NCBI GenBank assembly: GCA_964364345.1
Contig: CAYILQ010000002.1
Coordinates: forward strand, 1 to 36,209
DNA from: an uncultured Candidatus Saccharibacteria bacterium
GTDB taxonomy: Bacteria; Patescibacteriota; Minisyncoccia; 2-02-FULL-40-12; IGHO2-01-FULL-4-A
DNA length: 36,209 nucleotides
Reading direction: 5' to 3'
A model generated the notes under the pieces. The model was given only the letters and a program-made list of their open reading frames with translations. It searched no databases and was not told the origin of the DNA. The translations under genes and the position numbers were made by a program. Shown piece by piece: positions 2,136 through 36,209 of this stretch. The stretch's first letter is position 1, and each line of letters opens with the position of its first letter.

Positions 2136-4439
2136 TTGGACAAAATGGATTATCCCATCGAGAAAATCCGAAACATCGGCATCATCGCTCACATTGACGC
2201 TGGCAAGACAACCGTCACCGAGCGGGTTTTGTTTTACACCGGCGTTTCTCACAAGATTGGGGAGGTCCACGAGGGCGAGACCATCACCGACTGGATGGAG
2301 CAGGAACGGGAACGGGGGATTACCATTACGGCCGCGGCGGTTACCTGTTATTGGCGGCCTACTTATCAAGTAAATCAATCATCTGCCGAAGTTGCTTCTG
2401 CCGAGCTTTCGCAACCGTCAGCTCGTCCCGGTGCCGAAATTAAACCGGTCTTTGACGCCACGTCCCGGAAGTCCCGCCCCGACAATATCGGGGGCGGAGC
2501 GGCCAGAAGGCAAGGCAATATCGGCACGGGGACGGCTGCTCAACGCGTTGCGGTTCAACCTCGGCAGCGGGACGCCGAGCACCGAATAAACATCATCGAC
2601 ACCCCCGGCCACATCGATTTTACGGTCGAAGTCAAACGTTCGCTAAGAGTTCTTGACGGAGCAGTCGTGGTTTTTGACGGAGTGGCCGGGGTGGAGCCCC
2701 AATCGGAAACCAACTGGCGTTACGCCGACGAGTACGGCGTGCCCCGGATTTGTTTTATCAACAAACTTGATCGTTTGGGCGCTTCCTTTGAACGATCTTT
2801 CAGGTCAATTCTTGAGCGCTTGACCCCCTATGCCGTCAGGATGCAACTGCCCGATGGCGAGGAAGACAATTTCAAAGGCGTGGTTAATCTTTTGGAAATG
2901 AAATATTACGTCTTTGAAGGCGATCACGGCGAAAGGGTGGTGGAACAGCCGATTCTTTCAGCCCAACTGATGAAAGCTGCCGAAGTTGCCCGCCATGAAC
3001 TGGTTGAAAAAATTGTTGAGCACGACGACCAGGCAATGCACGACTACTTGGAGGGTAAAGAAATTCCCGTCCAACGTTTGCGGGAGATTTTGAGAAAAGC
3101 CGCCATCGCCAACAAACTGGTGCCGGTTTTCACCGGTTCGGCTTTGCGTAACAAGGGTGTTCAATTTGTTCTTGACGGAGTGATTGAATACTTGCCTTCC
3201 CCGATTGACAAGCCGGCAGTCAAAGGGGCTGAACCCAGAACCGGTCAGGAAATCACCCGCCAGCCCGATGAAAAAGAACCCTTCGCGGCTTTGGCTTTCA
3301 AAATCGCGACTGATGCCTATGTCGGTCAGCTGGCATTCTTCCGGGTTTATTCGGGCGTGCTCGCCGCCGGTTCTTATGTTCTAAACAGCGTTAGCGGTCA
3401 ACAGGAACGAATCGGCCGAGTCCTGCGCATGCGAGCTAACGACCGAGAAGAGATCGGAGAAGTCTATGCCGGCAATATTGCCGCCGCTGTCGGCCTCAAA
3501 GCCACCAGAACCGGCGATACTTTGTGCGACCCGGAGAACCCGATTATTTTGGAAAAGATAATTTTCCCCGAGCCGGTAATATCATTGCGCATTGAGCCCA
3601 AGACTAAAGCCGATCAGGAAAAGATGAGTTTGGCTTTGAAGAAACTGGCCGATGAAGACCCGACGTTTAGAATCAAGACCGATGAGGAAACCGCCGAAAT
3701 GATCATTTCGGGCATGGGCGAATTGCATCTGGAAATCATCGTTGAGCGGATGAAAAGAGAATTCAACGTCGGCGCCAATGTCGGCCGGCCCCAAGTGGCC
3801 TATAAAGAGACTATTAAACAAGAGGCCCAAGCCGAGGGCAAGTACATCCGCCAATCCGGCGGCCGAGGTCAGTACGGCCATGTTTGGCTGCGGGTTGAAC
3901 CCCAGCCGCGCGGCGGCGGTTTTGAGTTTATTGATGAGATCAAAAGCGGGGTCATCCCCAACGAGTTTATTCCGGCGATAGAGAAGGGGGCGCGCGAAGC
4001 CATAGACAAAGGCGTGGTCGCCGGCTTTCCCCTGGTGGACATGGCGGTGGCAGTTTATGATGGTTCCTACCACGAGGTTGACTCGTCGGAGATTGCCTTC
4101 AAAATCGCCGCTTCGGCGGCATTGCAGGAGGCGGTCAAGCGGGCCAAGCCGGTGATTCTTGAACCGATTATGAAAGTCGAGGTGATTGTGCCGGAGAAGT
4201 TTTTGGGCGAAGTCATGGGCGATCTTAATAGCCGACGCGGCCGAATTGAACAGACCAGCGACCGTTCGCCATTGAATCTCAAAGTTATTGACGCCAAGGT
4301 GCCCTTGTCAGAAATGTTTGGCTACGCCACCACCATCCGGTCACTGTCAGAAGGCCGCGGCTCTTACACCATGGAATTCAGCCGCTACGAGGAAGTGCCG
4401 GCTGGTATTGCAGAGTTGATCAAAGAAGGCAAGAAATAG
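2136..4439 (+). CDS. fusA: Elongation factor G carrying a 75-aa insertion in the G domain
   Basis: 767 aa with AHIDAGKTT (G1), DTPGHIDF (G3), NKLDR (G4) and full domains II-V ([27 protein letters not shown]). About 70 aa longer than typical EF-G because of the segment at 2355-2579. Confidence 0.95.
2355..2579. repeat. GC-rich imperfect palindromic element translated in frame inside fusA
   Basis: Arms 2383-2394/2556-2567 pair at 11/12 and 2423-2437/2521-2535 at 13/15, with a central GC hairpin near 2475-2496. Shares GTGCCGAAATT and GTTCAAnnTCGGCAGCGGGACG with 22925-23015. Confidence 0.65.
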
Positions 4440-4627: not shown

Positions 4628-4733
4628 CTGTAGGGAAACCTAAGCATTGGCATCTGCCCCGACCCCGCCAGGGCGGGATCGAGGATCCACGATCCCGCCA
4701 TGGCGGGATCGGGAGAATAGGTCTTCCCTACAG
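4628..4733. repeat. 106-bp nested palindrome in the leader of the RRM-protein gene
   Basis: The outer stem pairs CTGTAGGGAAACCTA (4628-4642) with TAGGTCTTCCCTACAG (4718-4733). Inside are CCCGCC-AG-GGCGGG (4664-4677), GGGATCG/CGATCCC, and the perfect 20-bp palindrome GATCCCGCCATGGCGGGATC (4691-4710). Confidence 0.7.
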
Positions 4734-4815
4734 AAGTGAAAAGCGCGAAGCGAAAAGCGAAAAAGGCAAGGCAAAGAGGAATCATCTTTTGAGTTTTGCA
4801 CTCTAAGCTTTACGT

Positions 4816-5175
4816 TTGGCGGTAGCGAACGTGAGTAAAAAGTTATATGTTGGTGGTTTGCCTTACAGCGCCACCGATGATCAGTTGCGGCAGCACTTCT
4901 CCCAAGCCGGGAACGTGGAATCTGCCCAGGTGGTCATAGACAAGTTCTCGGGCCGCTCCCGAGGCTTCGGCTTTGTCGAAATGTCTTCCGATGAGGAAGC
5001 CAACAAAGCCATTGAGATGTTGAACGGCCAAGATTTTGGCGGCCGGAACATCACTGTCAATGAAGCCCGACCAATGGAGGCCAGAGCGCCTCGTCAAGGC
5101 GGCTTTAACCGCGGCGGCGGCGGCCGAGGCTTTGGCGGCCGAGGCGGCTACGGCGGCGGTTTGGACAGGTACTAA
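4816..5175 (+). CDS. RRM-type RNA-binding protein with a glycine/arginine-rich tail
   Basis: RNP-2 LYVGGL, RNP-1 RGFGFVEM, and a C-terminal RGGGGRGFGGRGGYGGG tail. The ORF opens at TTG 4816; in-frame GTG at 4831 (MSKKLYVGGL) is an equally plausible start. Confidence 0.9.
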   Translation: MAVANVSKKLYVGGLPYSATDDQLRQHFSQAGNVESAQVVIDKFSGRSRGFGFVEMSSDEEANKAIEMLNGQDFGGRNITVNEARPMEARAPRQGGFNRGGGGRGFGGRGGYGGGLDRY

Positions 5176-10463: not shown

Positions 10464-11204
10464 TGAGAGTACTCTCATGGTGACTTGAGGTGCGACCTCA
10501 AATAAATGAGAAAGGTAAAGTTTGTCAAAGGAGAGTTTTTCCATGTCTATAATCGTGGCGTGGATAAGCGCAATATTTTCCTGGATCAGGGGGATTATTT
10601 GAGGTTTTGCAAAGCGCTTAAATTTTTTAATTCCGAGAGTCCTTGCTGGATAGCAACGGTTAACAGAAAAGACCAAACTCCTTCCCCCGAAGATCAATTG
10701 GTGGATGTAATCTGCTTTTGTTTAATGCCTAATCATTATCATCTGCTTTTGCGGCCAATAACCGAAAATGGGGTGACCAAGTTCATGCGTAAACTAAACA
10801 CCGGCTATACTATTTATTTTAATATTAAGCATCAGAGAACCGGTAGATTGTTTGAAAATAAATTTAAAGCCATCCATGTTGATAACGACCTGTACCTTAA
10901 ACACCTTACTCGATATATCCACTTAAACCCGCTTGATCTGTATCAAGGTGAATGGCGGGAGGGCAAAGTAGGGAACGCCAAATCATCCTTGCGATACATA
11001 GAGGATTATCCGTGGTCAAGTTATTCCAGCTATGTTTCGAAATTTAAGCGCAATGATATAATTAACCCTAAACCGCTAATGGAAATCTTTGGAGGCGAAA
11101 ACTATGAAAACTTTGTTGCCTCTTGGACAGCACGTGATTTCGATACGGTCAGACCATTGACGCTGGAATAGTTTGTGTTTTGTTGAGGTCGCACCTCAAT
11201 AAAT
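10464..11204 (+). mobile_element. IS200/RAYT-like unit: Y1 (HUH) transposase bounded by terminal hairpins
   Basis: TTGAGGT-GCG-ACCTCAA (10485-10501) and TTGAGGT-CGC-ACCTCAA (11183-11199) have the same stem and complementary loops, and each is followed by (A)TAAAT. They lie 715 bp end to end, and a 14-bp palindrome TGAGAGTACTCTCA (10464-10477) sits just upstream. Confidence 0.7.
10506..11171 (+). CDS. IS200-like / REP-associated tyrosine (Y1, HUH) transposase
   Basis: 221 aa. HUH motif in CLMPNHYHLLLRP and a catalytic-Tyr motif RYIHLNP, as in the Y1_Tnp (PF01797-type) RAYT-like proteins. Confidence 0.85.
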   Translation: MRKVKFVKGEFFHVYNRGVDKRNIFLDQGDYLRFCKALKFFNSESPCWIATVNRKDQTPSPEDQLVDVICFCLMPNHYHLLLRPITENGVTKFMRKLNTGYTIYFNIKHQRTGRLFENKFKAIHVDNDLYLKHLTRYIHLNPLDLYQGEWREGKVGNAKSSLRYIEDYPWSSYSSYVSKFKRNDIINPKPLMEIFGGENYENFVASWTARDFDTVRPLTLE

Positions 11205-11207
11205 CTT

Positions 11208-12200
11208 ATGGCTGAAGTTTTTGTAACAAGACCTATCCCAAATCGAGGAATTGAAATTCTTAAGGCCGAAGGGTTTGATGTTGTCATAAACGAGATAGCC
11301 AGAGAGCGGGCGGCGACGAAGGAGGAGATGTTGGCTGCTCTGGGGCAAGCTCGAAATGAAGGAAAGCCCTTCAGTGCTTTGCTTTCGGTCTTGACTGAAG
11401 AAATTGACGCCGAAATTATGGATGCTGCCGGACCACAACTTAAAATTATCGCTAATTATGCGGTCGGTTTTGACAATATTGATCTGGCGGCGGCTAAACA
11501 ACGAAGGATCATGGTGACTAATACGCCGGAAGTGCTTACTAATACGGTGGCCGAACACACCTTTGCTTTAATGCTGGCCATTGCTCATCGGGTTTCTGAA
11601 GCCGATCGGTTCAGCCGCGCGGGATTATATAAAGCTTGGGGACCAGAACTGCTTTTGGGTACCGATGTTTCAGGCAAGACCTTGGGTGTAATTGGTCTTG
11701 GCCGGATTGGCTCGCGAGTGGCTCACCACGCTGTCAAGGGCTTTGGCATGAAAGTCATGTACACTGACCCCAAACCCAATCCAGACTTTGAGAGGGAATA
11801 TGGAGCAATTTACGCGGCCAGTGTTGATGAGCTTTTACCTCAAGGCGATTTTGTGTCAATCCACGCGCCGTTGTTGGATTCGACCCGGCACTTGATAAAT
11901 GAGGCCAGGCTCAAGATGATGAGACCGACCGCTTACTTGATAAACACTTCGCGCGGCCCGATAATTGATGAGAAGGCTCTGGCTGCAGCCTTGGTGCAGG
12001 GTTGGATCAAGGGCGCGGCCATTGATGTTTTTGAAAACGAGCCCGAGATTACTCCCGAGCTAAAAACGCTTGATAACATAATCTTGACCCCCCACATCGC
12101 CTCGGCGACCGCGGAAACCAGAAACAAGATGGCCGTTCTCGCCGCCGAAAACATTATTGAAGCTTTGGAAGGCAAAATCCCGCCCAATTTAGTTAAATAG
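11208..12200 (+). CDS. D-isomer-specific 2-hydroxyacid dehydrogenase (glyoxylate/hydroxypyruvate reductase-like)
   Basis: 330 aa with the GVIGLGRIGSRVA NAD-binding motif, INTSRGPIID and the LTPHIASAT catalytic His region. Confidence 0.9.
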   Translation: MAEVFVTRPIPNRGIEILKAEGFDVVINEIARERAATKEEMLAALGQARNEGKPFSALLSVLTEEIDAEIMDAAGPQLKIIANYAVGFDNIDLAAAKQRRIMVTNTPEVLTNTVAEHTFALMLAIAHRVSEADRFSRAGLYKAWGPELLLGTDVSGKTLGVIGLGRIGSRVAHHAVKGFGMKVMYTDPKPNPDFEREYGAIYAASVDELLPQGDFVSIHAPLLDSTRHLINEARLKMMRPTAYLINTSRGPIIDEKALAAALVQGWIKGAAIDVFENEPEITPELKTLDNIILTPHIASATAETRNKMAVLAAENIIEALEGKIPPNLVK

Positions 12201-12203
12201 CCA

Positions 12204-12255
12204 CTAGCCGCTAGCGACTAGCCACTGACACTAGTCGCTAAGGGCTAGTCGCTAG
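12204..12255. repeat. CTAG-rich palindromic spacer
   Basis: CTAGCGACTAG (12211-12221) is the reverse complement of CTAGTCGCTAG (12245-12255) and pairs over its first 10 nt with CTAGTCGCTA (12231-12240). Confidence 0.7.
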
Positions 12256-12263
12256 TTGCTTGT

Positions 12264-17314: not shown

Positions 17315-18658
17315 ATGCGATTCAATCCAGAAATTTTCAGAGCCTATGATGTTAGGGGGGTTTATGATAAAGATCTTGATTGTGATTTTGCGGTTGGTCT
17401 TGGAACGGCGTTAGTCAGCTATCTCAAGGGTCCAAAGATCCTGGTGGCTCACGATGATCGCGATTCTTCAATTGCCCTCGCCCAGTCGCTGATGAATGGT
17501 GTGATGGCAGGCGGTAGCAAGGTAATTTACCTTGGCCTAGCGACGACACCTTTTTTTAATTTTGTTTTCGGCCAGCTTGGGGTTGCCGGTGGGGCAATGG
17601 TTACAGCTTCTCATAACCCCCCTCAATACGCCGGGTTCAAGATTTTTGGCAGGGGCGGCAATCCTCTTGGTCTTGATTCGGGCCTGGGGATTATAAAGGA
17701 GTTGGTTGAAAAGAATCAGTTTGATAAATTCAGAAAACAAGGCGACCTGATCAAGCCAGACCGTAAGAATTTGCTCGAGAAGTATGTAAAATTCGTTGCT
17801 GCCAAAGCGAAATCGAGGCCTGGAGAATTAAGGGATTTAAAAGTAAAGATTTCGGGGTCAGGGGTAGCAATGGAGGAAGCAGGGCTTCTGGCCAAAATCT
17901 GTGGCTTATCGGTTGACGACAATGGCGATATCCGTTTTCTGTTTGACGGTGATGCTGACCGGTTAGCCGTCATCAATGAAAATGGCGATCCCGTCCGTTC
18001 CGATCACCTCGTAGGTCTTTTGGCCAAGGATGCCGTTAAGTTTTTGTCTAAACCGAAGGTGGTTTACGATTCGCGATTTTCCAAAGGGGTGACCCAGAAG
18101 TTTGGCGAGTGGGGGGTCAAAGGCTTTCGGTCCCGGGTGGGTCGGGTTTTCGTTAGGGGTGAGATGATTAAACGCCAAGCGGATATCGGCGGTGAACTTT
18201 CCGGCCACGTTTATTTCAAAGAAGCCAATTACCACGAGCTGCCGCTTTTGGCGATGTTGAGACTTCTCAAAATATTGGCCCGAAGCAAAATGTCGATCGT
18301 GGAATTAGTTAAACCGTTCCAAACTTGGTATAACTCCGGCGAGATTAATTTTGAGATCGCGGATTTACCGAATCGGCCGGACTCCGGCTCGGAGCCTCCA
18401 AATAGACCACTATCATTTCACTACGATCGTGGTAAAATGATAGTGTGGGATTTGTTCGAGTTACTAAAACAAAAATTCAGCGACGGGGAATTTGATGACT
18501 TGGACGGCTTGACCATTGAATACCCGGATTGGTGGTTTAACATCCGGCCCTCAAACACCGAGCCGGTGCTGCGGCTTGTGGTTGAAGCAAAATCCCAAGA
18601 ACTGTTAGAGCAAAAGATATCAGAAGTTTCAGGGTTAATAAAAACCGCTCTGTTTTAG
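17315..18658 (+). CDS. Phosphomannomutase/phosphoglucomutase (alpha-D-phosphohexomutase)
   Basis: TASHNPPQYAGFK active-site Ser loop, DGDADR Mg loop, GGELSGH sugar loop and RPSNTEPVLR phosphate loop. About 30 extra residues precede the C-terminal domain. Confidence 0.9.
   Translation: MRFNPEIFRAYDVRGVYDKDLDCDFAVGLGTALVSYLKGPKILVAHDDRDSSIALAQSLMNGVMAGGSKVIYLGLATTPFFNFVFGQLGVAGGAMVTASHNPPQYAGFKIFGRGGNPLGLDSGLGIIKELVEKNQFDKFRKQGDLIKPDRKNLLEKYVKFVAAKAKSRPGELRDLKVKISGSGVAMEEAGLLAKICGLSVDDNGDIRFLFDGDADRLAVINENGDPVRSDHLVGLLAKDAVKFLSKPKVVYDSRFSKGVTQKFGEWGVKGFRSRVGRVFVRGEMIKRQADIGGELSGHVYFKEANYHELPLLAMLRLLKILARSKMSIVELVKPFQTWYNSGEINFEIADLPNRPDSGSEPPNRPLSFHYDRGKMIVWDLFELLKQKFSDGEFDDLDGLTIEYPDWWFNIRPSNTEPVLRLVVEAKSQELLEQKISEVSGLIKTALF
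18408..18445. repeat. 38-bp palindrome family, copy 1, inside the phosphohexomutase CDS
   Basis: CACTATCATTTCACTACGATCGTGGTAAAATGATAGTG matches the consensus CACTATCATTTTACCACGATCGTGGTAAAATGATAGTG at 36/38. Translated as LSFHYDRGKMIV. Confidence 0.85.
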
Positions 18659-22621: not shown

Positions 22622-23707
22622 TTAAGACCGCGATTTCTTAAAGGTTTCTATGGCGGATGCGTCAAGAGGATCAACCCCTAAATGGCGAGCTAAATCAAAG
22701 GAAGTCGAGACCGCCAGGTTGTAGTTGCCAAGAATTTTTTCAAGTCTGCCGCCGCCCGTCAGTTTGATGACTTCGTGATCAATACCCATAGCCGCCAGAA
22801 ACGAGGCGAACTTTTCCAGTATGTCTTTGTCGGCTTTGTCTTCGTCAGGGTCGGCTAGGATTATCGGAAAAGGTTTAAGTGTTCCAACGGCATTGCCAAT
22901 GAACTGCCGACCTTGCTCGCCCTCGTGCCGAAATTGAGCTTGCCTTTGGCACGAAGGGACGGAAGGACAAAAGGGACTTGCTGGCAAAGCCAAGTTCAAT
23001 TTCGGCAGCGGGACGGTCAATGTCGGCGCCGGGACGCTCGGCGCCGGGACGGCGAAGCCGGCCAATTCATTGTGGGCCGCTTCGGGAAAGTAGTTTGAGA
23101 ACGAATGAATCTTGCAATCCTCATTAAAATTAGTCTTCCAGAACTTGGCCAGATAACGCCATTGGTAGGACGAGTAAATCAGAGGTGTTTTGAAACCGAT
23201 CCGACTGGAGAACCTAGGGCCAACAACAGGTTTGGTCTGGATATTGGTTGGCAGCTTGAAATCAATGATAGCAGAATTGTTAAGCAGTGTCAACAAAGAG
23301 GCCAGCATATAGCCAACTCCGAGTCTTGGTGGTACTGGATCGTCAGGTAGTTTGATTAAAAGTGCGTCATGTTCTCGGGCAGTCTTGGCCAACTCACCAC
23401 CCTTAGTTATAGCTGCTGTGGGGATTCCCAATTCTTGGGCCGCCTTAAAAGATGAAATTGTCTCTTCGGTATTGCCCGACCAGGAAGTGCAAATGATCAG
23501 GTGCTCACGACCGGCCCAATGGGGGAGACCAAAACCCCGCTGGATGTAACAATTGAAGCCGTCAAGCCAGAGCGTTGAGATTATCTCTCCCGGAATCGCC
23601 GAACCGCCCAGGCCGCAGAAAATTACCCGGCTAAAATCACCGGAAACCTTGACATTTTTGGCCGCTTTAGCCCCTTCGGCTAGCTGCCTGGGAAAGTTAA
23701 TGGTCAT
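22622..23707 (-). CDS. Bifunctional phosphoglucose/phosphomannose isomerase (SIS domain) with a ~57-aa insertion
   Basis: 361 aa. SIS motifs (FCGLGGSAIPG, ICTSWSGNTEET) and PEAAHNE in the C-terminal half. A proline-rich low-complexity block (aa ~219-275) interrupts it. Confidence 0.8.
   Translation of the reverse strand: MTINFPRQLAEGAKAAKNVKVSGDFSRVIFCGLGGSAIPGEIISTLWLDGFNCYIQRGFGLPHWAGREHLIICTSWSGNTEETISSFKAAQELGIPTAAITKGGELAKTAREHDALLIKLPDDPVPPRLGVGYMLASLLTLLNNSAIIDFKLPTNIQTKPVVGPRFSSRIGFKTPLIYSSYQWRYLAKFWKTNFNEDCKIHSFSNYFPEAAHNELAGFAVPAPSVPAPTLTVPLPKLNLALPASPFCPSVPSCQRQAQFRHEGEQGRQFIGNAVGTLKPFPIILADPDEDKADKDILEKFASFLAAMGIDHEVIKLTGGGRLEKILGNYNLAVSTSFDLARHLGVDPLDASAIETFKKSRS
22904..23062. 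repeat. GC-rich palindromic element (same family as 2355-2579) translated in frame inside pgi
   Basis: Arms 22925-22942 / 22991-23008 pair at 16/18. TCGGC(A/G)(G/C)CGGGACG occurs three times (23002, 23023, 23038). Shares an 11/11 and a 20/22 core with the fusA element in the same plus-strand orientation, although the host gene is on the minus strand. Confidence 0.65.
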
Positions 23708-27528: not shown

Positions 27529-28563
27529 ATGCGAGATAACGTTTTGGCAACTTTGGCCTATTATGATGTTTTGGACTTTCCGCTCAAAGCCGAGGAGGTT
27601 TTGAAGTGCCTGATTAGACTTGATCCAAGATCACTATCATTTTACCACGCCCGCCAAAATTTTTGGCCTAGCGCCTCTGGCGCGGATCATGAAAACGGAT
27701 CCAAAAACTTAGGCGGGCACGATCGTGGTAATTTGATAGTGACCATTGCTGATATTAAAAAAATTCTTGACCAGTTGATCCTGGAAAAATTGGCCGATTT
27801 TAATCAGGGTTACTATTTCTTACCTGGTCGCGATTACCTCGCACCTCTGCGGCTTAAACGTGAAAAAATTTCCCGAAAAAAATGGGCCAAAGCCCGGCAA
27901 GCCATCTGGTGGCTGAAGTTTATTCCTTACGTTGAAGCGGTTTTTGCTTCGGGCTCACTAGCCCTCAACAATTGCGACGAGTTAAGCGACCTGGACGTTT
28001 TGGTGGTTACCAAACATGGCCGGATTTGGCTGACCAGGTTTTGGATTACCGCCTGGCTTTCCGTCATCGGTGCCCGCCGTAAGCCGTTTGACAAAATCGC
28101 CCCCGACAAAATCTGCCTCAACCACTATATCACCGATAAGTCGCTGCGAATTCCTTTTGAAAGCATGTACAACGCCCAGAATTATGTCAATCTAAAGCCG
28201 GTGTTGATCAGAAATTGGAAGATCGTTGAAAAATTTAGGGAGGAGAATAATTGGATTAGTAAGTTCGTGATTGGAGATTGGGCGATTAGCAATGATCCGG
28301 AAAAACTTATCAGAATCAACCGACTGGCGAGACTGGTTTCCGGGATTGGCAAAACGACCCTCAATACAAAATTGGGGGATTGGTTGGAAAAAATTGCCAG
28401 AAGATATCAAATAAAACGGATCGAAGCTAACCCTTTGACCAAAAGTCCAACCGGCCATGTCGTTTACTCTGACGAACAACTGGCCTTTCACCCTGATTCC
28501 CCGGAGTCTTCGGTCTTGGAAAGATTTGATCAGAAGCTTGCCGAATTGAAAATAGTTGTCTGA
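27529..28563 (+). CDS. Hypothetical protein with a polymerase-beta-type nucleotidyltransferase motif
   Basis: 344 aa. ASGSLALNNCDELSDLDVLVV (GS-x-SDxD). The N-terminal region is interrupted by a translated repeat element. Confidence 0.65.
   Translation: MRDNVLATLAYYDVLDFPLKAEEVLKCLIRLDPRSLSFYHARQNFWPSASGADHENGSKNLGGHDRGNLIVTIADIKKILDQLILEKLADFNQGYYFLPGRDYLAPLRLKREKISRKKWAKARQAIWWLKFIPYVEAVFASGSLALNNCDELSDLDVLVVTKHGRIWLTRFWITAWLSVIGARRKPFDKIAPDKICLNHYITDKSLRIPFESMYNAQNYVNLKPVLIRNWKIVEKFREENNWISKFVIGDWAISNDPEKLIRINRLARLVSGIGKTTLNTKLGDWLEKIARRYQIKRIEANPLTKSPTGHVVYSDEQLAFHPDSPESSVLERFDQKLAELKIVV
27632..27741. repeat. Composite element: 38-bp palindrome (copy 2) split by a 68-bp inner palindrome
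   Basis: The outer halves are CACTATCATTTTACCACG (27632-27649) and CACGATCGTGGTAATTTGATAGTG (27718-27741). The inner CCCGCCAAAATTTTTGG...CCAAAAACTTAGGCGGG (27650-27717) is flanked by a direct CACG duplication. Confidence 0.8.
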
Positions 28564-33523: not shown

Positions 33524-34315
33524 ATGCAGAAAGTTTTGGCGAGGATTTTGATTTTTTCCATTCTTTGGCCTTCGTATGTGGTGGGCCAACAAAAAACTGC
33601 CGATCCTCATCGTGTTTTTAGGTTTACTGACCTGCCATCGCCGGATTATTACTGGCGTGAGTTCAAACTCCAAATCGTTAGACCGGTTAAGGATATCACC
33701 AGTATTGATTCGGATCTGGTAATCCGTAATAACCCTCAAAGTGATAGGGGATTCCTATCTCGCTGGTTGCAACAGGGCCAAGATTTTGGGATTGTTGAAG
33801 AACCAACGCCAGTTACAATGATTGGCGGTTCTGGTGAACCAGTAAAAGTTATTCTTAACTCGGGTGAAATCGTTGTTCTCGATGTTCGGAACGATAACAA
33901 GCCGGAAAAGGAAATCCTGGTTGTGATCAGATGTGCCAATAAGGTAATTGATGGCGCTATCAAAATTGAAGCTCCCGAGACGCGGATGGTGCCCGGGCCT
34001 CAAGGTCCAGCCGGTCTCCGGGGTGAGAAAGGCGAGCCGGGCTCACCGGGCCCTGCCGGTCCTCAAGGGCCGCCAGGCCCAGCAGGTTCAGCCCCGACTG
34101 TTTCTCAAGACAATCGGATTCTCATAATCTTTCCGCGTCCGCCGCCGTATCATGAGGAGAGAAAACCCGGCTGGTGGAGCCGGAACGGTTGGTGGGTGAT
34201 AACTCTGGGAGGTCTTATCAGCGCGGGTGCGGCCATAGGGCTGGTCAAGGATCGAAAGCCGGCGCCGCCGACACAGCCCAGCAAAACATGGACTCCGCCA
34301 AATCCGCCCCAGTGA
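33524..34315 (+). CDS. Collagen-like-repeat protein with signal peptide and C-terminal TM anchor
   Basis: The GGGAGG SD lies 5 nt upstream. The protein has an N-terminal signal-like helix, ten consecutive G-X-Y triplets (GPQGPAGLRGEKGEPGSPGPAGPQGPPGPAG, 33995-34087), a TM helix (WWVITLGGLISAGAAIGLV) and a Pro-rich tail. Confidence 0.8.
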   Translation: MQKVLARILIFSILWPSYVVGQQKTADPHRVFRFTDLPSPDYYWREFKLQIVRPVKDITSIDSDLVIRNNPQSDRGFLSRWLQQGQDFGIVEEPTPVTMIGGSGEPVKVILNSGEIVVLDVRNDNKPEKEILVVIRCANKVIDGAIKIEAPETRMVPGPQGPAGLRGEKGEPGSPGPAGPQGPPGPAGSAPTVSQDNRILIIFPRPPPYHEERKPGWWSRNGWWVITLGGLISAGAAIGLVKDRKPAPPTQPSKTWTPPNPPQ

Positions 34316-34429: not shown

Positions 34430-34503
34430 CACTATCATTTTACCACGATCGTGAGAATCTGATAGTACTATTATTTTACCACGATCGTGGTAAAATGATA
34501 GCG
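34430..34503. repeat. 38-bp palindrome family, copies 3 and 4 in tandem (intergenic)
   Basis: 34430-34467 matches the consensus at 33/38 and 34466-34503 at 35/38. Preceded by the 14-nt tandem ATTATG(G/A)GTTCTCG x2 (34394-34421). Confidence 0.85.
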
Positions 34504-34613: not shown

Positions 34614-36209
34614 ATGAAAAACCTTGTTTCTCGGGTCATTTCCAAGCTTAATTTGAAGATTGGAGTGAAATCTGTTATCGCCGGGGCGGCAGTGCTGGCG
34701 GTTTTGCCTTTTTTGGTTAATTTCGGCGACATGACTGCCGGCGCTGTTGAGTGTTCCGGAGCGCCGACGACGGCAACGGTTAACCCCTTCCCAATCACCT
34801 TCACCGGCGAGCCCTGCAAGGATTATCCGCCCATTGACGCCCGAGTGATCAATGAGGGCAGCTATTCCCAGGACATGAATGACTGGCTGGACGGCGTCAG
34901 CGCCGGAGCCGGCGACGAACTCTATGTCAGAATCTATGTTCACAACGGCGCCGCCGAAAATCTCGACCCGGCTCAAACCACGGCCCGCAATGTCCAAGCT
35001 TACACAACAGTTGATTCCGCCTATCAAGCCGAACATTCAATTGCGACGACCTTTTGGGGTTCAAACACCAATACCGTCAACGGCAGCATTGCCATTCACA
35101 CCGGACCCAATGACAAGTTGGTACCAATTGCCGCAAGCGGCGAGCTTTACGATTGGAACGGCAATTTAATCAGAAGCGGTCTTAACATCGCCGATACAAA
35201 TTATTACCTCGGCGATATGCTGGCCTGTTTTCAATACAGCGTTTTTCTCCGTTTCAAAGTCCAGGTAGTGAGTCAGCCAACGCCGACACCAACTCCTACA
35301 CCTACTCCCACTCCGACCCCGACGCCTACTCAAACACCTGCCCCAACGCCAACGCCACTTTGCAGTCTAACTTGGTCTTATCCGACATATTCGAATGGCG
35401 CCGGAGCGCGGCGTGTAGGGGAGTACTCAAATGTCTGGATTGACCTTTGGAATTTCACCCCTTCGAGCTCGGTGGTGATGCGCAACACTAATCTCGATGA
35501 CAGCCGCGCCCGCTCGGTCACTTTGGCCGTTGACCAATCCGGCGGTTTTCACAAATACGATTCAACTCTTATTGAAGCGTCTCAATACACCGCTGGCAGC
35601 TACAAGACCGAAATTTATGATAACTACGGGCGGTATTTAACTTATTGTTATCCAAGTTTTGTTATTTTGGCCCCAACACCGACGCCCACTCCTCCAACTC
35701 CTACGCCAACGCCCACACCTACGCCTACACCTATCCCAATAGTCAACGATACTCTTTGTCTTGGCATCAATTCACCGTCAACCGTAGTCACGGGTCAGAG
35801 CTTTAACGCCTCGGTGACTATGTACAATAGCGGCACTAAAGTCTGGACGAGAGACTCCACTCCTCATCGCCTTGGTTCCCAAAGTCCCCAAGACAATACT
35901 CGATGGGTAGTTAGCCGAGTAGAGTTGCCTTATTCGCCGGTCAACCCAGGTCAGACAGCCGTTTTTAGTTTTGCCGCTACTGCTCCGGCAACTGCCGGCA
36001 CTTATGCTTTTGATTGGAAGATGCTTGAAGAGTCCATTGAATGGTTTGGCCAAACCTGCCAGAAGACAATTACCGTCATTTCGCCAACTCCGACTCCTAC
36101 CCCGACCCCTACACCAACCCCAACTCCGACACCGACTCCTACGCCCACCCCCACTCCCACGCCTAGCCCAACTCCAAGCCCAACGCCGCTTACTCAACTT
36201 TTCTGCAGC
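34614..36209 (+). CDS. Secreted multidomain surface protein with Pro-Thr linkers (partial, runs off the window end)
   Basis: My own translation from ATG 34614 is open for 532 codons to the window end; it is absent from the ORF track because it has no stop. It has an N-terminal signal/TM helix and three globular modules separated by (PT)n linkers. The last module (GQSFNASVTMYNSGTKVW...GTYAFDWKMLEE..WFG) resembles NBR1-type Ig-like (FW) domains. Confidence 0.8.
   Translation, partial: MKNLVSRVISKLNLKIGVKSVIAGAAVLAVLPFLVNFGDMTAGAVECSGAPTTATVNPFPITFTGEPCKDYPPIDARVINEGSYSQDMNDWLDGVSAGAGDELYVRIYVHNGAAENLDPAQTTARNVQAYTTVDSAYQAEHSIATTFWGSNTNTVNGSIAIHTGPNDKLVPIAASGELYDWNGNLIRSGLNIADTNYYLGDMLACFQYSVFLRFKVQVVSQPTPTPTPTPTPTPTPTPTQTPAPTPTPLCSLTWSYPTYSNGAGARRVGEYSNVWIDLWNFTPSSSVVMRNTNLDDSRARSVTLAVDQSGGFHKYDSTLIEASQYTAGSYKTEIYDNYGRYLTYCYPSFVILAPTPTPTPPTPTPTPTPTPTPIPIVNDTLCLGINSPSTVVTGQSFNASVTMYNSGTKVWTRDSTPHRLGSQSPQDNTRWVVSRVELPYSPVNPGQTAVFSFAATAPATAGTYAFDWKMLEESIEWFGQTCQKTITVISPTPTPTPTPTPTPTPTPTPTPTPTPTPSPTPSPTPLTQLFCS
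35277..35357 (+). repeat. Pro-Thr linker-coding tandem repeat 1
   Basis: Encodes PTPTPTPTPTPTPTPTPTQTPAPTPTP. Confidence 0.9.
35670..35738 (+). repeat. Pro-Thr linker-coding tandem repeat 2
   Basis: Encodes APTPTPTPPTPTPTPTPTPTPIP. Confidence 0.9.
36081..36188 (+). repeat. Pro-Thr linker-coding tandem repeat 3
   Basis: Encodes SPTPTPTPTPTPTPTPTPTPTPTPTPSPTPSPTP. Confidence 0.9.

Follow-up and report, generated by a model that had tools for sequence, protein, structure and literature searches.

A nested pair of repeats in a CPR coding sequence

A 110-nt block within the gene for a nucleotidyltransferase-domain protein (NTase) of an uncultured Candidatus Saccharibacteria bacterium is, with good probability, made up of two small mobile repeats, one nested in the other, that form hairpins, are non-autonomous, and lie in a coding sequence of the Candidate Phyla Radiation (CPR)/Patescibacteria. 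The host is an ultra-small groundwater bacterium, and the DNA analyzed is a 36,209-nt stretch of its contig CAYILQ010000002.1 (GCA_964364345.1; GC content, 49%), hereafter the window. We propose that an outer 36-nt element would insert at a pyrimidine/purine junction without target duplication, and that an inner 68-nt element would have entered it beside its hairpin tip, duplicating CACG and adding 72 nt. Together they would add 36 residues to a variable, disordered surface linker, so that the protein would tolerate them. The layout is as follows, with strand given only where one was assigned.

27529-28563, plus strand: host gene, NTase, 344 aa (open reading frame; weak PF01909 match)
27632-27649: outer 38-mer, left portion (positions 1-18), CACTATCATTTTACCACG; 0 mismatches to the left-half consensus; core from 27633
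27646-27649: left CACG copy (38-mer positions 15-18, beside the hairpin tip), read from the sequence
27650-27717, plus strand: inner 68-nt repeat, CCCGCCAAAATTTTTGG-CCTA-GCGCCTCTGGCGC-GGATCATGAAAACGGAT-CCAAAAACTTAGGCGGG, with left inverted repeat 27650-27666, hairpin 1 (GCGCC-TCT-GGCGC) 27671-27683, hairpin 2 (GGATC...GATCC) 27684-27702, and right inverted repeat 27701-27717; two further family members lie outside the window
27718-27721: right CACG copy, read from the sequence
27718-27741: outer 38-mer, right portion (positions 15-38), CACGATCGTGGTAATTTGATAGTG; 2 mismatches to the right-half consensus; core to 27740

A first-pass annotation of the window had described a 38-bp palindrome split by a 68-bp second palindrome with CACG on both sides, and all of these sequence statements hold; excising 27650-27721 (the 68 nt plus one CACG) rebuilds the 38-mer with 2 differences from its consensus, CACTATCATTTTACCACGATCGTGGTAAAATGATAGTG. 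Its reading that one repeat had landed in another is likewise upheld, as both repeats are multicopy, the 68-mer is seen alone at two other loci (L012 and L013), and homologues of the protein are without the block. The added lengths, 36 nt (12 codons) for the outer core and 72 nt (24 codons) for the inner insertion, keep the frame. As DNA, the 124-nt composite folds at -31.7 kcal/mol (z = -7.0 relative to shuffled sequences).

The open reading frame at 27529-28563 is continuous across the composite, reading ...RSLSFYHARQNFWPSASGADHENGSKNLGGHDRGNLIVT..., and the earlier claim that the block is read through in an NTase-domain protein stands in this sense: we infer translation from the one-frame continuity of the conserved parts on either side of the insert (residues 1-30 at the N terminus and residues 72-344). 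Among 703 NTase homologues, the closest (67%, 65%, and 57% identity; 311 to 313 aa) align with a 31-column gap at the block, most of the others are likewise gapped there, and the position is a length-variable linker. The syntenic NTase orthologue in a related genome, CAYIXQ01, is also without the block, so that the comparison of homologues that had been suggested bears out an insertion. The residues invariant in the family are all retained despite the block. In an AlphaFold2 model built on the homologue alignment (mean predicted local distance difference test score [pLDDT] of 86.7; predicted template-modeling score [pTM] of 0.85), residues 43-67 have pLDDT values below 50 and the blocks spanning residues 31-70 average 38 to 58; the 36-residue insert is predicted to be a disordered surface loop. 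We note that homologue P0008 has its own unrelated insertion of ~25 aa at the same linker and that P0005 and P0015 have unrelated insertions (PPAGEAG/LPASEAG) further along. It seems that insertions have repeatedly landed in the NTase linker.

A one-off assembly artifact is unlikely for this block, because over 1397 nt, composite included, the sequence is matched at 100% identity by an ENA contig from a separate assembly (2348 bp; Hainich H51, 0.1 µm fraction). Repeats do break assemblies, CAYIXQ contigs end inside composites, and the independent ENA contig has only ~3x coverage (from its record name); however, with this identity and an open reading frame that is intact, in frame, and bounded by conserved domains on either side, a chimeric join at the repeat during assembly or binning is scarcely credible as an explanation.

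It is also highly improbable that the 36 residues are missing from the finished protein because the block is taken out ahead of translation or afterwards, be it that RNase III excises the stem, that the block acts as a mini-intron, or that it is intein-like or bypassed. CPR genomes are known for intervening sequences in their rRNA genes, and the transcript stem is predicted to be very stable (-51.7 kcal/mol for the 124-nt composite as RNA; z = -7.25 relative to shuffles). Removal would, however, make needless both the exact multiples of three in the added lengths and the constant use of the sole stop-free frame, and 110 nt is far too small for a group I or group II intron or an intein. No intron or ribozyme matches were found, and Rfam searches at the gathering threshold and at E values up to 10 returned nothing beyond two tRNAs and a snoRNA match due to chance.

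The outer family of palindromes

The 38-mer consensus is a perfect palindrome that folds at -24.1 kcal/mol (z = -9.7), and within it 36 nt form the conserved core, itself perfectly palindromic (ACTATCATTTTACCACGATCGTGGTAAAATGATAGT). A repeat search finds three intact copies and one split copy in the window, whereas an exact-type search with the 38-mer rebuilt from the split copy gave 0 matches at ≤3 mismatches. The intact copies are located as follows.

18408-18445: intact 38-mer in the phosphomannomutase/phosphoglucomutase (PMM) open reading frame 17315-18658, read as LSFHYDRGKMIV; homologues are without ~22 aa there
34430-34503: two intergenic 38-mers, 34430-34467 and 34466-34503, whose 36-nt cores directly abut (C, core, core, G)

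The arrangement of the tandem pair fits re-insertion at the same pyrimidine/purine junction, namely the element boundary.

A scan with a 21-nt pattern of one genome per species, covering 185,579 species, matched a single genome, CAYIXQ01, which is labelled Candidatus Saccharibacteria and has at least 13 intact copies (mostly with 0 to 2 mismatches) and at least two interrupted ones. The search for intact 38-mers that the first-pass annotation had proposed is thus positive in both genomes, and copy numbers are ~15 to 20 per genome. A scan of viral contigs for the 38-mer gave no match. The idea that the repeat is a DNA uptake sequence was rejected on its copy number.

Among the CAYIXQ copies, positions 1 and 38 (C/T and G/A) vary in 10 of 26 cases and the internal 36 positions in 8 of 468 (Fisher p = 8e-10). 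The outer copies have no flanking direct repeats and their left flanks share no fixed 4- to 5-mer; the sole constants at their borders are a left-hand pyrimidine and a right-hand purine. Because the terminal positions vary and the internal ones hardly do, and because flanking direct repeats are absent, the mobile outer unit is probably 36 nt long and inserted without target duplication. Thirty-six nucleotides are 12 codons, and insertion of such a unit would therefore never shift the reading frame.

The window is syntenic with CAYIXQ010000004.1 at ~67 to 76% nucleotide identity, sharing the order SBP_bac_5 solute-binding protein, holin-like protein, NTase, GroES, GroEL, LemA, and M48 peptidase. 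A 38-mer copy lies between groES and groEL in CAYIXQ, and there is none at that position in the window. Near-identical outer elements at nonorthologous sites in two diverged genomes carry the signature of mobility. As a control, ordinary indels in neighboring genes relative to the L028 orthologues do not fold as hairpins.

Copies within genes

Of the palindrome's three frames, frame 3 alone is free of stop codons, and the element therefore survives in genes only in that frame, where it encodes LSFYHDRGKMIV. This peptide occurs in four unrelated proteins: CAYIXQ SecA (...KEKSLSFYHDRGKMIVPENF...), CAYIXQ RNase HII (...SATLSFYHDRGKMIVSKK...; solved RNase HII structures are ~21 residues shorter in that loop), the PMM of the window (...PLSFHYDRGKMIVW...), and the NTase. 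The intragenic copies are two of the four 38-mers in the window and at least 2 of the 13 intact CAYIXQ copies, the remaining copies being intergenic. Peptides predicted from translated repeats include QNFWPSASGADHENGSK, LSFYHDR, and NLGGHDR. Just upstream of the PMM copy, at 18366-18400, a run of small palindromes (CCGGACTCCGG, GGCTCGGAGCC) encodes the extra residues PNRPDSGSEPPNRP, which is why the PMM insert exceeds the 38-mer alone.

The inner family and its flanks

The inner 68-mer is present once in the window. One further family member was found in a scan of Joint Genome Institute (JGI) metagenomes (L012:1116-1182, directly after the greA stop codon) and another in a scan of viral contigs (L013:115-178, minus strand, on an IMG/VR contig, again directly after a stop codon). 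A looser viral-contig scan with the degenerate left end of the element gave 12 loci, of which the other 11 were set aside as chance matches in which the partner end is missing. Similarity among the three copies begins and stops exactly at CCCGCC...GGCGGG, corresponding to 27650 and 27717, and their 17-nt ends agree, the left end of L013 differing by a single base. These terminal inverted repeats, CCCGCCAAAATTTTTGG and CCAAAAACTTAGGCGGG, show complementarity at 15 of their 17 positions. Family members are 64 to 68 nt long; for hairpin 1, two copies read GCGCC-TCT-GGCGC and one reads GCGCT-TTA-AGCGC, the change being compensatory, and the sequence of hairpin 2 differs among copies. Neither the L012 nor the L013 copy lies within a 38-mer, and since these copies stand without one and the similarity is bounded by the inverted repeats, the inner 68-mer is a repeat family independent of the outer one.

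The inner copies are flanked by CACG/CACG in the window and CAA/CAA in L013. With chances of flank identity at fixed boundaries of only 1/256 and 1/64, respectively, a short target duplication by the inner element is likely. The first-pass annotation had taken CACG for a target-site duplication, which is plausible, although the support comes from two copies with flanks of unequal length; of the two further 68-mers, both from contigs outside this genome, one has the 3-bp CAA and the other (L012) cannot be scored.

Two observations concern the surroundings of the L012 copy. An inverted fragment of the same end lies 3 nt past it and forms, together with the right end, a terminator-like hairpin after greA (L012:1166-1200), and a small GIY-YIG gene begins 16 nt after the element (L012:1198).

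The annotation had also linked the inner element to a palindrome cluster at 4664-4710 through shared CCCGCC/GGCGGG and GGATCC modules. This kinship (cluster at 4658-4713) was rejected, as only hexamers common in the window are shared (CCCGCC occurs 14 times, GGCGGG 17 times, and GGATCC 4 times). Within 4630-4735, upstream of an RRM-domain gene (4816-5175), the cluster forms a 56-nt palindrome in which two CCCGCCnnnGGCGGG mini-hairpins flank GGATCC; ctgtagggaa...ttccctacag is the inverted repeat that encloses it, and no relation to the 68-mer could be demonstrated.

Nesting and composites

The inner insertion follows position 18 of the 38-mer, whose tip loop comprises positions 18-21. Interruption at the tip is also seen in CAYIXQ, where L006:8-120 and L001:1-64 have 38-mer arms around a 75-nt palindromic center at the exact middle, with different right flanks. 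Read in the LSFYH frame, this second composite has no stop codon; it is present at two or more loci, and its center is unrelated to that of the window composite. Nesting at the hairpin tip thus appears to recur, and interrupted 38-mers are not unique to the NTase gene. Both of these CAYIXQ contigs start inside the composite, which thus breaks the assembly. All of the added lengths (36, 72, and 75 nt) are multiples of three. Since a composite exists at several CAYIXQ loci, composites probably move as units through their outer ends.

These long forms bear on a different account, in which there is a single family, the 110-nt block is its long form with a variable tip, the 38-mer is an internally deleted derivative, and CACG is microhomology from deletion or recombination. 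The CAYIXQ long form, with 38-mer ends and the 75-nt center at two or more loci with different flanks, indicates that long forms propagate as units, and the inconstant duplication length (4 and 3 nt, with none evident in L012) is in keeping with such an origin. However, the 68-mer is found without 38-mer arms in two unrelated contigs with similarity ending at the inverted repeats, the two long forms have unrelated centers, intact 38-mers far outnumber long forms, and deletion of 72 nt rebuilds the palindrome with only the two differences from consensus. We therefore regard a single family as distinctly unlikely.

A role as functional cis elements kept by selection, such as binding sites for a dimeric protein, terminators or attenuators, or RNA-processing sites, would agree with the near identity of the repeat in two genomes whose genes are ~70 to 76% identical, with the location of several copies at gene ends or starts (some followed by T runs, as in L003), and with the positions of the L012 and L013 inner copies directly after stop codons. 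It is improbable, though, given that copies lie mid-coding in SecA, RNase HII, PMM, and NTase, that copies occupy different positions in the two syntenic genomes, that Rfam matches are absent, and that copy number is low, at ~15 to 20 per genome.

Candidate mobilizing enzyme and assessment

The only transposase-like gene in the window resembles the transposases associated with repetitive extragenic palindromic (REP) sequences (REP-associated tyrosine transposases [RAYTs]).

10485-11199, plus strand: RAYT-like Y1/HUH transposase gene (gene 10506-11171), 221 aa; PF01797; flanked by inverted 17-nt hairpins TTGAGGTGCGACCTCAA and TTGAGGTCGCACCTCAA

The protein carries HYH and YIHLNP motifs and scores 36 bits against PF01797 (cutoff, 23) and 36 bits against the RAYT equivalog NF047646, below the cutoff of 80. 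Relatives with 49 to 68% identity (L027:1333-2048 and L028:9980-10692) occupy the same slot, between RpiB and a 2-hydroxyacid dehydrogenase, and have the same TTGAGGTnnnACCTCAA hairpins. Because gene, slot, and hairpins are shared among relatives, the Y1 gene has the look of a RAYT-like gene that was domesticated and is inherited vertically. The family numbers more than 3700 proteins, predominantly from CPR and Omnitrophota. No link of the Y1 protein to the 38-mer was found, and as an enzyme for the outer element it is a weak candidate, a lead rather than a finding.

For the nested pair of mobile repeats that we favor, movement would plausibly proceed as single-stranded hairpins or through a transposase supplied in trans, and a DDE-type enzyme or microhomology-mediated capture could account for insertion of the inner element. 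The inner element may have nested in place, or a ready-made composite may have arrived in the gene.

Several observations weigh against this interpretation or parts of it. The target duplication is based on two copies, and their unequal lengths (4 and 3 nt) also fit microhomology-mediated events; L012 has no scorable flanking duplication, as a repeat fragment abuts it; and the inner family numbers just three known copies, one of them in the 36 kb of this genome. The interrupted 38-mers of L006 and L001 have a different inner sequence and no CACG duplication, and because the CAYIXQ composite occurs at two loci or more, the composite in the NTase gene may have come as a unit rather than having nested in place. 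An exact empty site was found for no copy, so that the 36-nt unit and the pyrimidine/purine target rest on variability rather than a before-and-after comparison. Empty sites are not recovered because the nearest homologues are at most 67% identical and intergenic regions are unalignable; in alignments of the window and CAYIXQ between groES and groEL and downstream of the M48 peptidase gene, the intergenic DNA is too diverged. As to the enzyme, the TTGAGGTnnnACCTCAA hairpins bear no relation to the two repeats and are confined to the flanks of the Y1 gene, in the window and in its relatives, and no Y1 homologue is present in the 88 kb of CAYIXQ DNA examined. Among the loci examined there is neither a transposase with ends matching the repeats nor a parent insertion sequence of the inner element.

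A more far-reaching account would have a codon-phased set of palindromes, with lengths in multiples of three (36, 72, and 75 nt) and a single stop-free frame apiece, that spreads as single-stranded DNA hairpins, prefers hairpin tips, forms mobile composites, might be driven by the RAYT-like Y1 protein, and continually remodels surface loops of essential proteins (SecA, EF-G, RNase HII, and PMM among them), the multiples of three having evolved rather than reflecting a survivorship filter. We consider this unlikely.

Other repeats in the window

A third palindromic family is found in frame in the EF-G gene (open reading frame 2136-4439; repeat 2358-2582) and in a PGI-like gene (open reading frame 22622-23707, minus strand; repeat 22906-23027). 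The EF-G insert of ~75 aa (residues 75-149), defined relative to all solved EF-G structures, lies after the conserved ...TCYW and before the next conserved segment, and is composed of inverted repeats related to the 122-nt palindrome within the PGI-like gene. The nested NTase insertion is part of a wider habit of this lineage, as illustrated by EF-G and the PGI-like gene.

There are also three blocks of Pro/Thr-coding repeats with a 12-nt period (CCNACNCCNACN) at 35265-36189, ~400 nt apart, in an open reading frame that runs off the window end; the neighboring open reading frame 33524-34315 has a collagen-repeat match. Long inverted repeats occur at 5973-6006/6139-6172, 1934-1962/2090-2118, 32106-32141/32240-32275, and 12195-12257, with arms of 27 to 36 nt that are 81 to 88% complementary and enclose 9 to 132 nt; these are mostly intergenic.

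Significance and comparison with known systems

Palindromic selfish DNA that colonizes housekeeping genes in frame has been described chiefly in Rickettsia, and CPR/Patescibacteria genomes are streamlined and usually described as poor in mobile DNA; the repeats described here extend the phenomenon to such genomes. A search of a limited collection of papers found no report of palindromic repeats inside CPR genes and none joining RAYTs or REPINs (elements of the REP-RAYT systems) with CPR. Elements of this type lengthen and diversify CPR proteins, with consequences for annotation, orthology, and length statistics, and they break metagenome-assembled genomes; they are also usable as strain-level presence/absence markers. 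The nested copy with its footprint, together with the multilocus composites, offers a concrete setting in which to study the movement of hairpin elements and the reasons for which tips are targeted.

Coding palindromes of up to 284 bp are described in mitochondrial genes of Nematomorpha (PMC6649704). As there, perfect inverted repeats stand in coding sequence with both arms translated (here by prediction), but the nematomorph palindromes are long, gene specific, and confined to animal mitochondria, whereas here a short sequence is dispersed at many bacterial loci.

The outer repeat resembles REP sequences of REP/REPIN-RAYT systems in being a short palindrome (REPs are 20 to 40 nt) without target duplication, and the window holds a single-copy Y1/HUH gene with an inverted hairpin on either side. 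REPs, however, are extragenic by definition and abundant, and the outer repeat is often intragenic and of low copy number; moreover, the TTGAGGTnnnACCTCAA hairpins flanking the Y1 gene are not the dispersed repeat, a GTAG-type 5' tetranucleotide is absent, and the NF047646 score falls short, as given above. Palindrome-associated elements derived from IS200/IS605 have subterminal hairpins, lack terminal inverted repeats, and insert 3' of a fixed tetra- or pentanucleotide without duplicating it. No duplication flanks the outer element, which as a whole forms a single palindrome and has no fixed tetra- or pentanucleotide on its left.

Bacterial MITEs (transposable elements of the miniature inverted-repeat type; e.g., ERIC/RU, Correia, and BOX) are the nearest comparison for the inner family, whose members end in inverted repeats, have short repeats at their flanks (4 and 3 nt), encode nothing, and lie at gene ends or inside a gene; intragenic MITEs compatible with open reading frames are known (PMC2759123, PMC3184786, PMC10969869). 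It departs from them in being extremely small, with no parent element found, an inconstant duplication length, and one copy in the hairpin tip of another repeat. By these features the inner element would fit a very small MITE.

Rickettsia palindromic elements (RPEs) are hairpin repeats that lie in frame in unrelated genes at fold-compatible sites (PMC10969869). The outer family is similarly a dispersed, enzyme-less, stable hairpin repeat, both intergenic and in frame in unrelated housekeeping genes (SecA, RNase HII, PMM, and NTase), with the NTase insert in a predicted disordered loop. It is set apart by size and host, RPEs being ~100 to 150 bp and found only in Rickettsia whereas the core here is 36 nt (12 codons) and the host belongs to the CPR; a second family is nested at the hairpin tip, and the copy number, at ~15 to 20 per genome, is lower. 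By this analogy the closest known behavior would be that of the RPEs, the repeats being selfish DNA that would act much as RPEs do while not belonging to RPE-1 to RPE-10.

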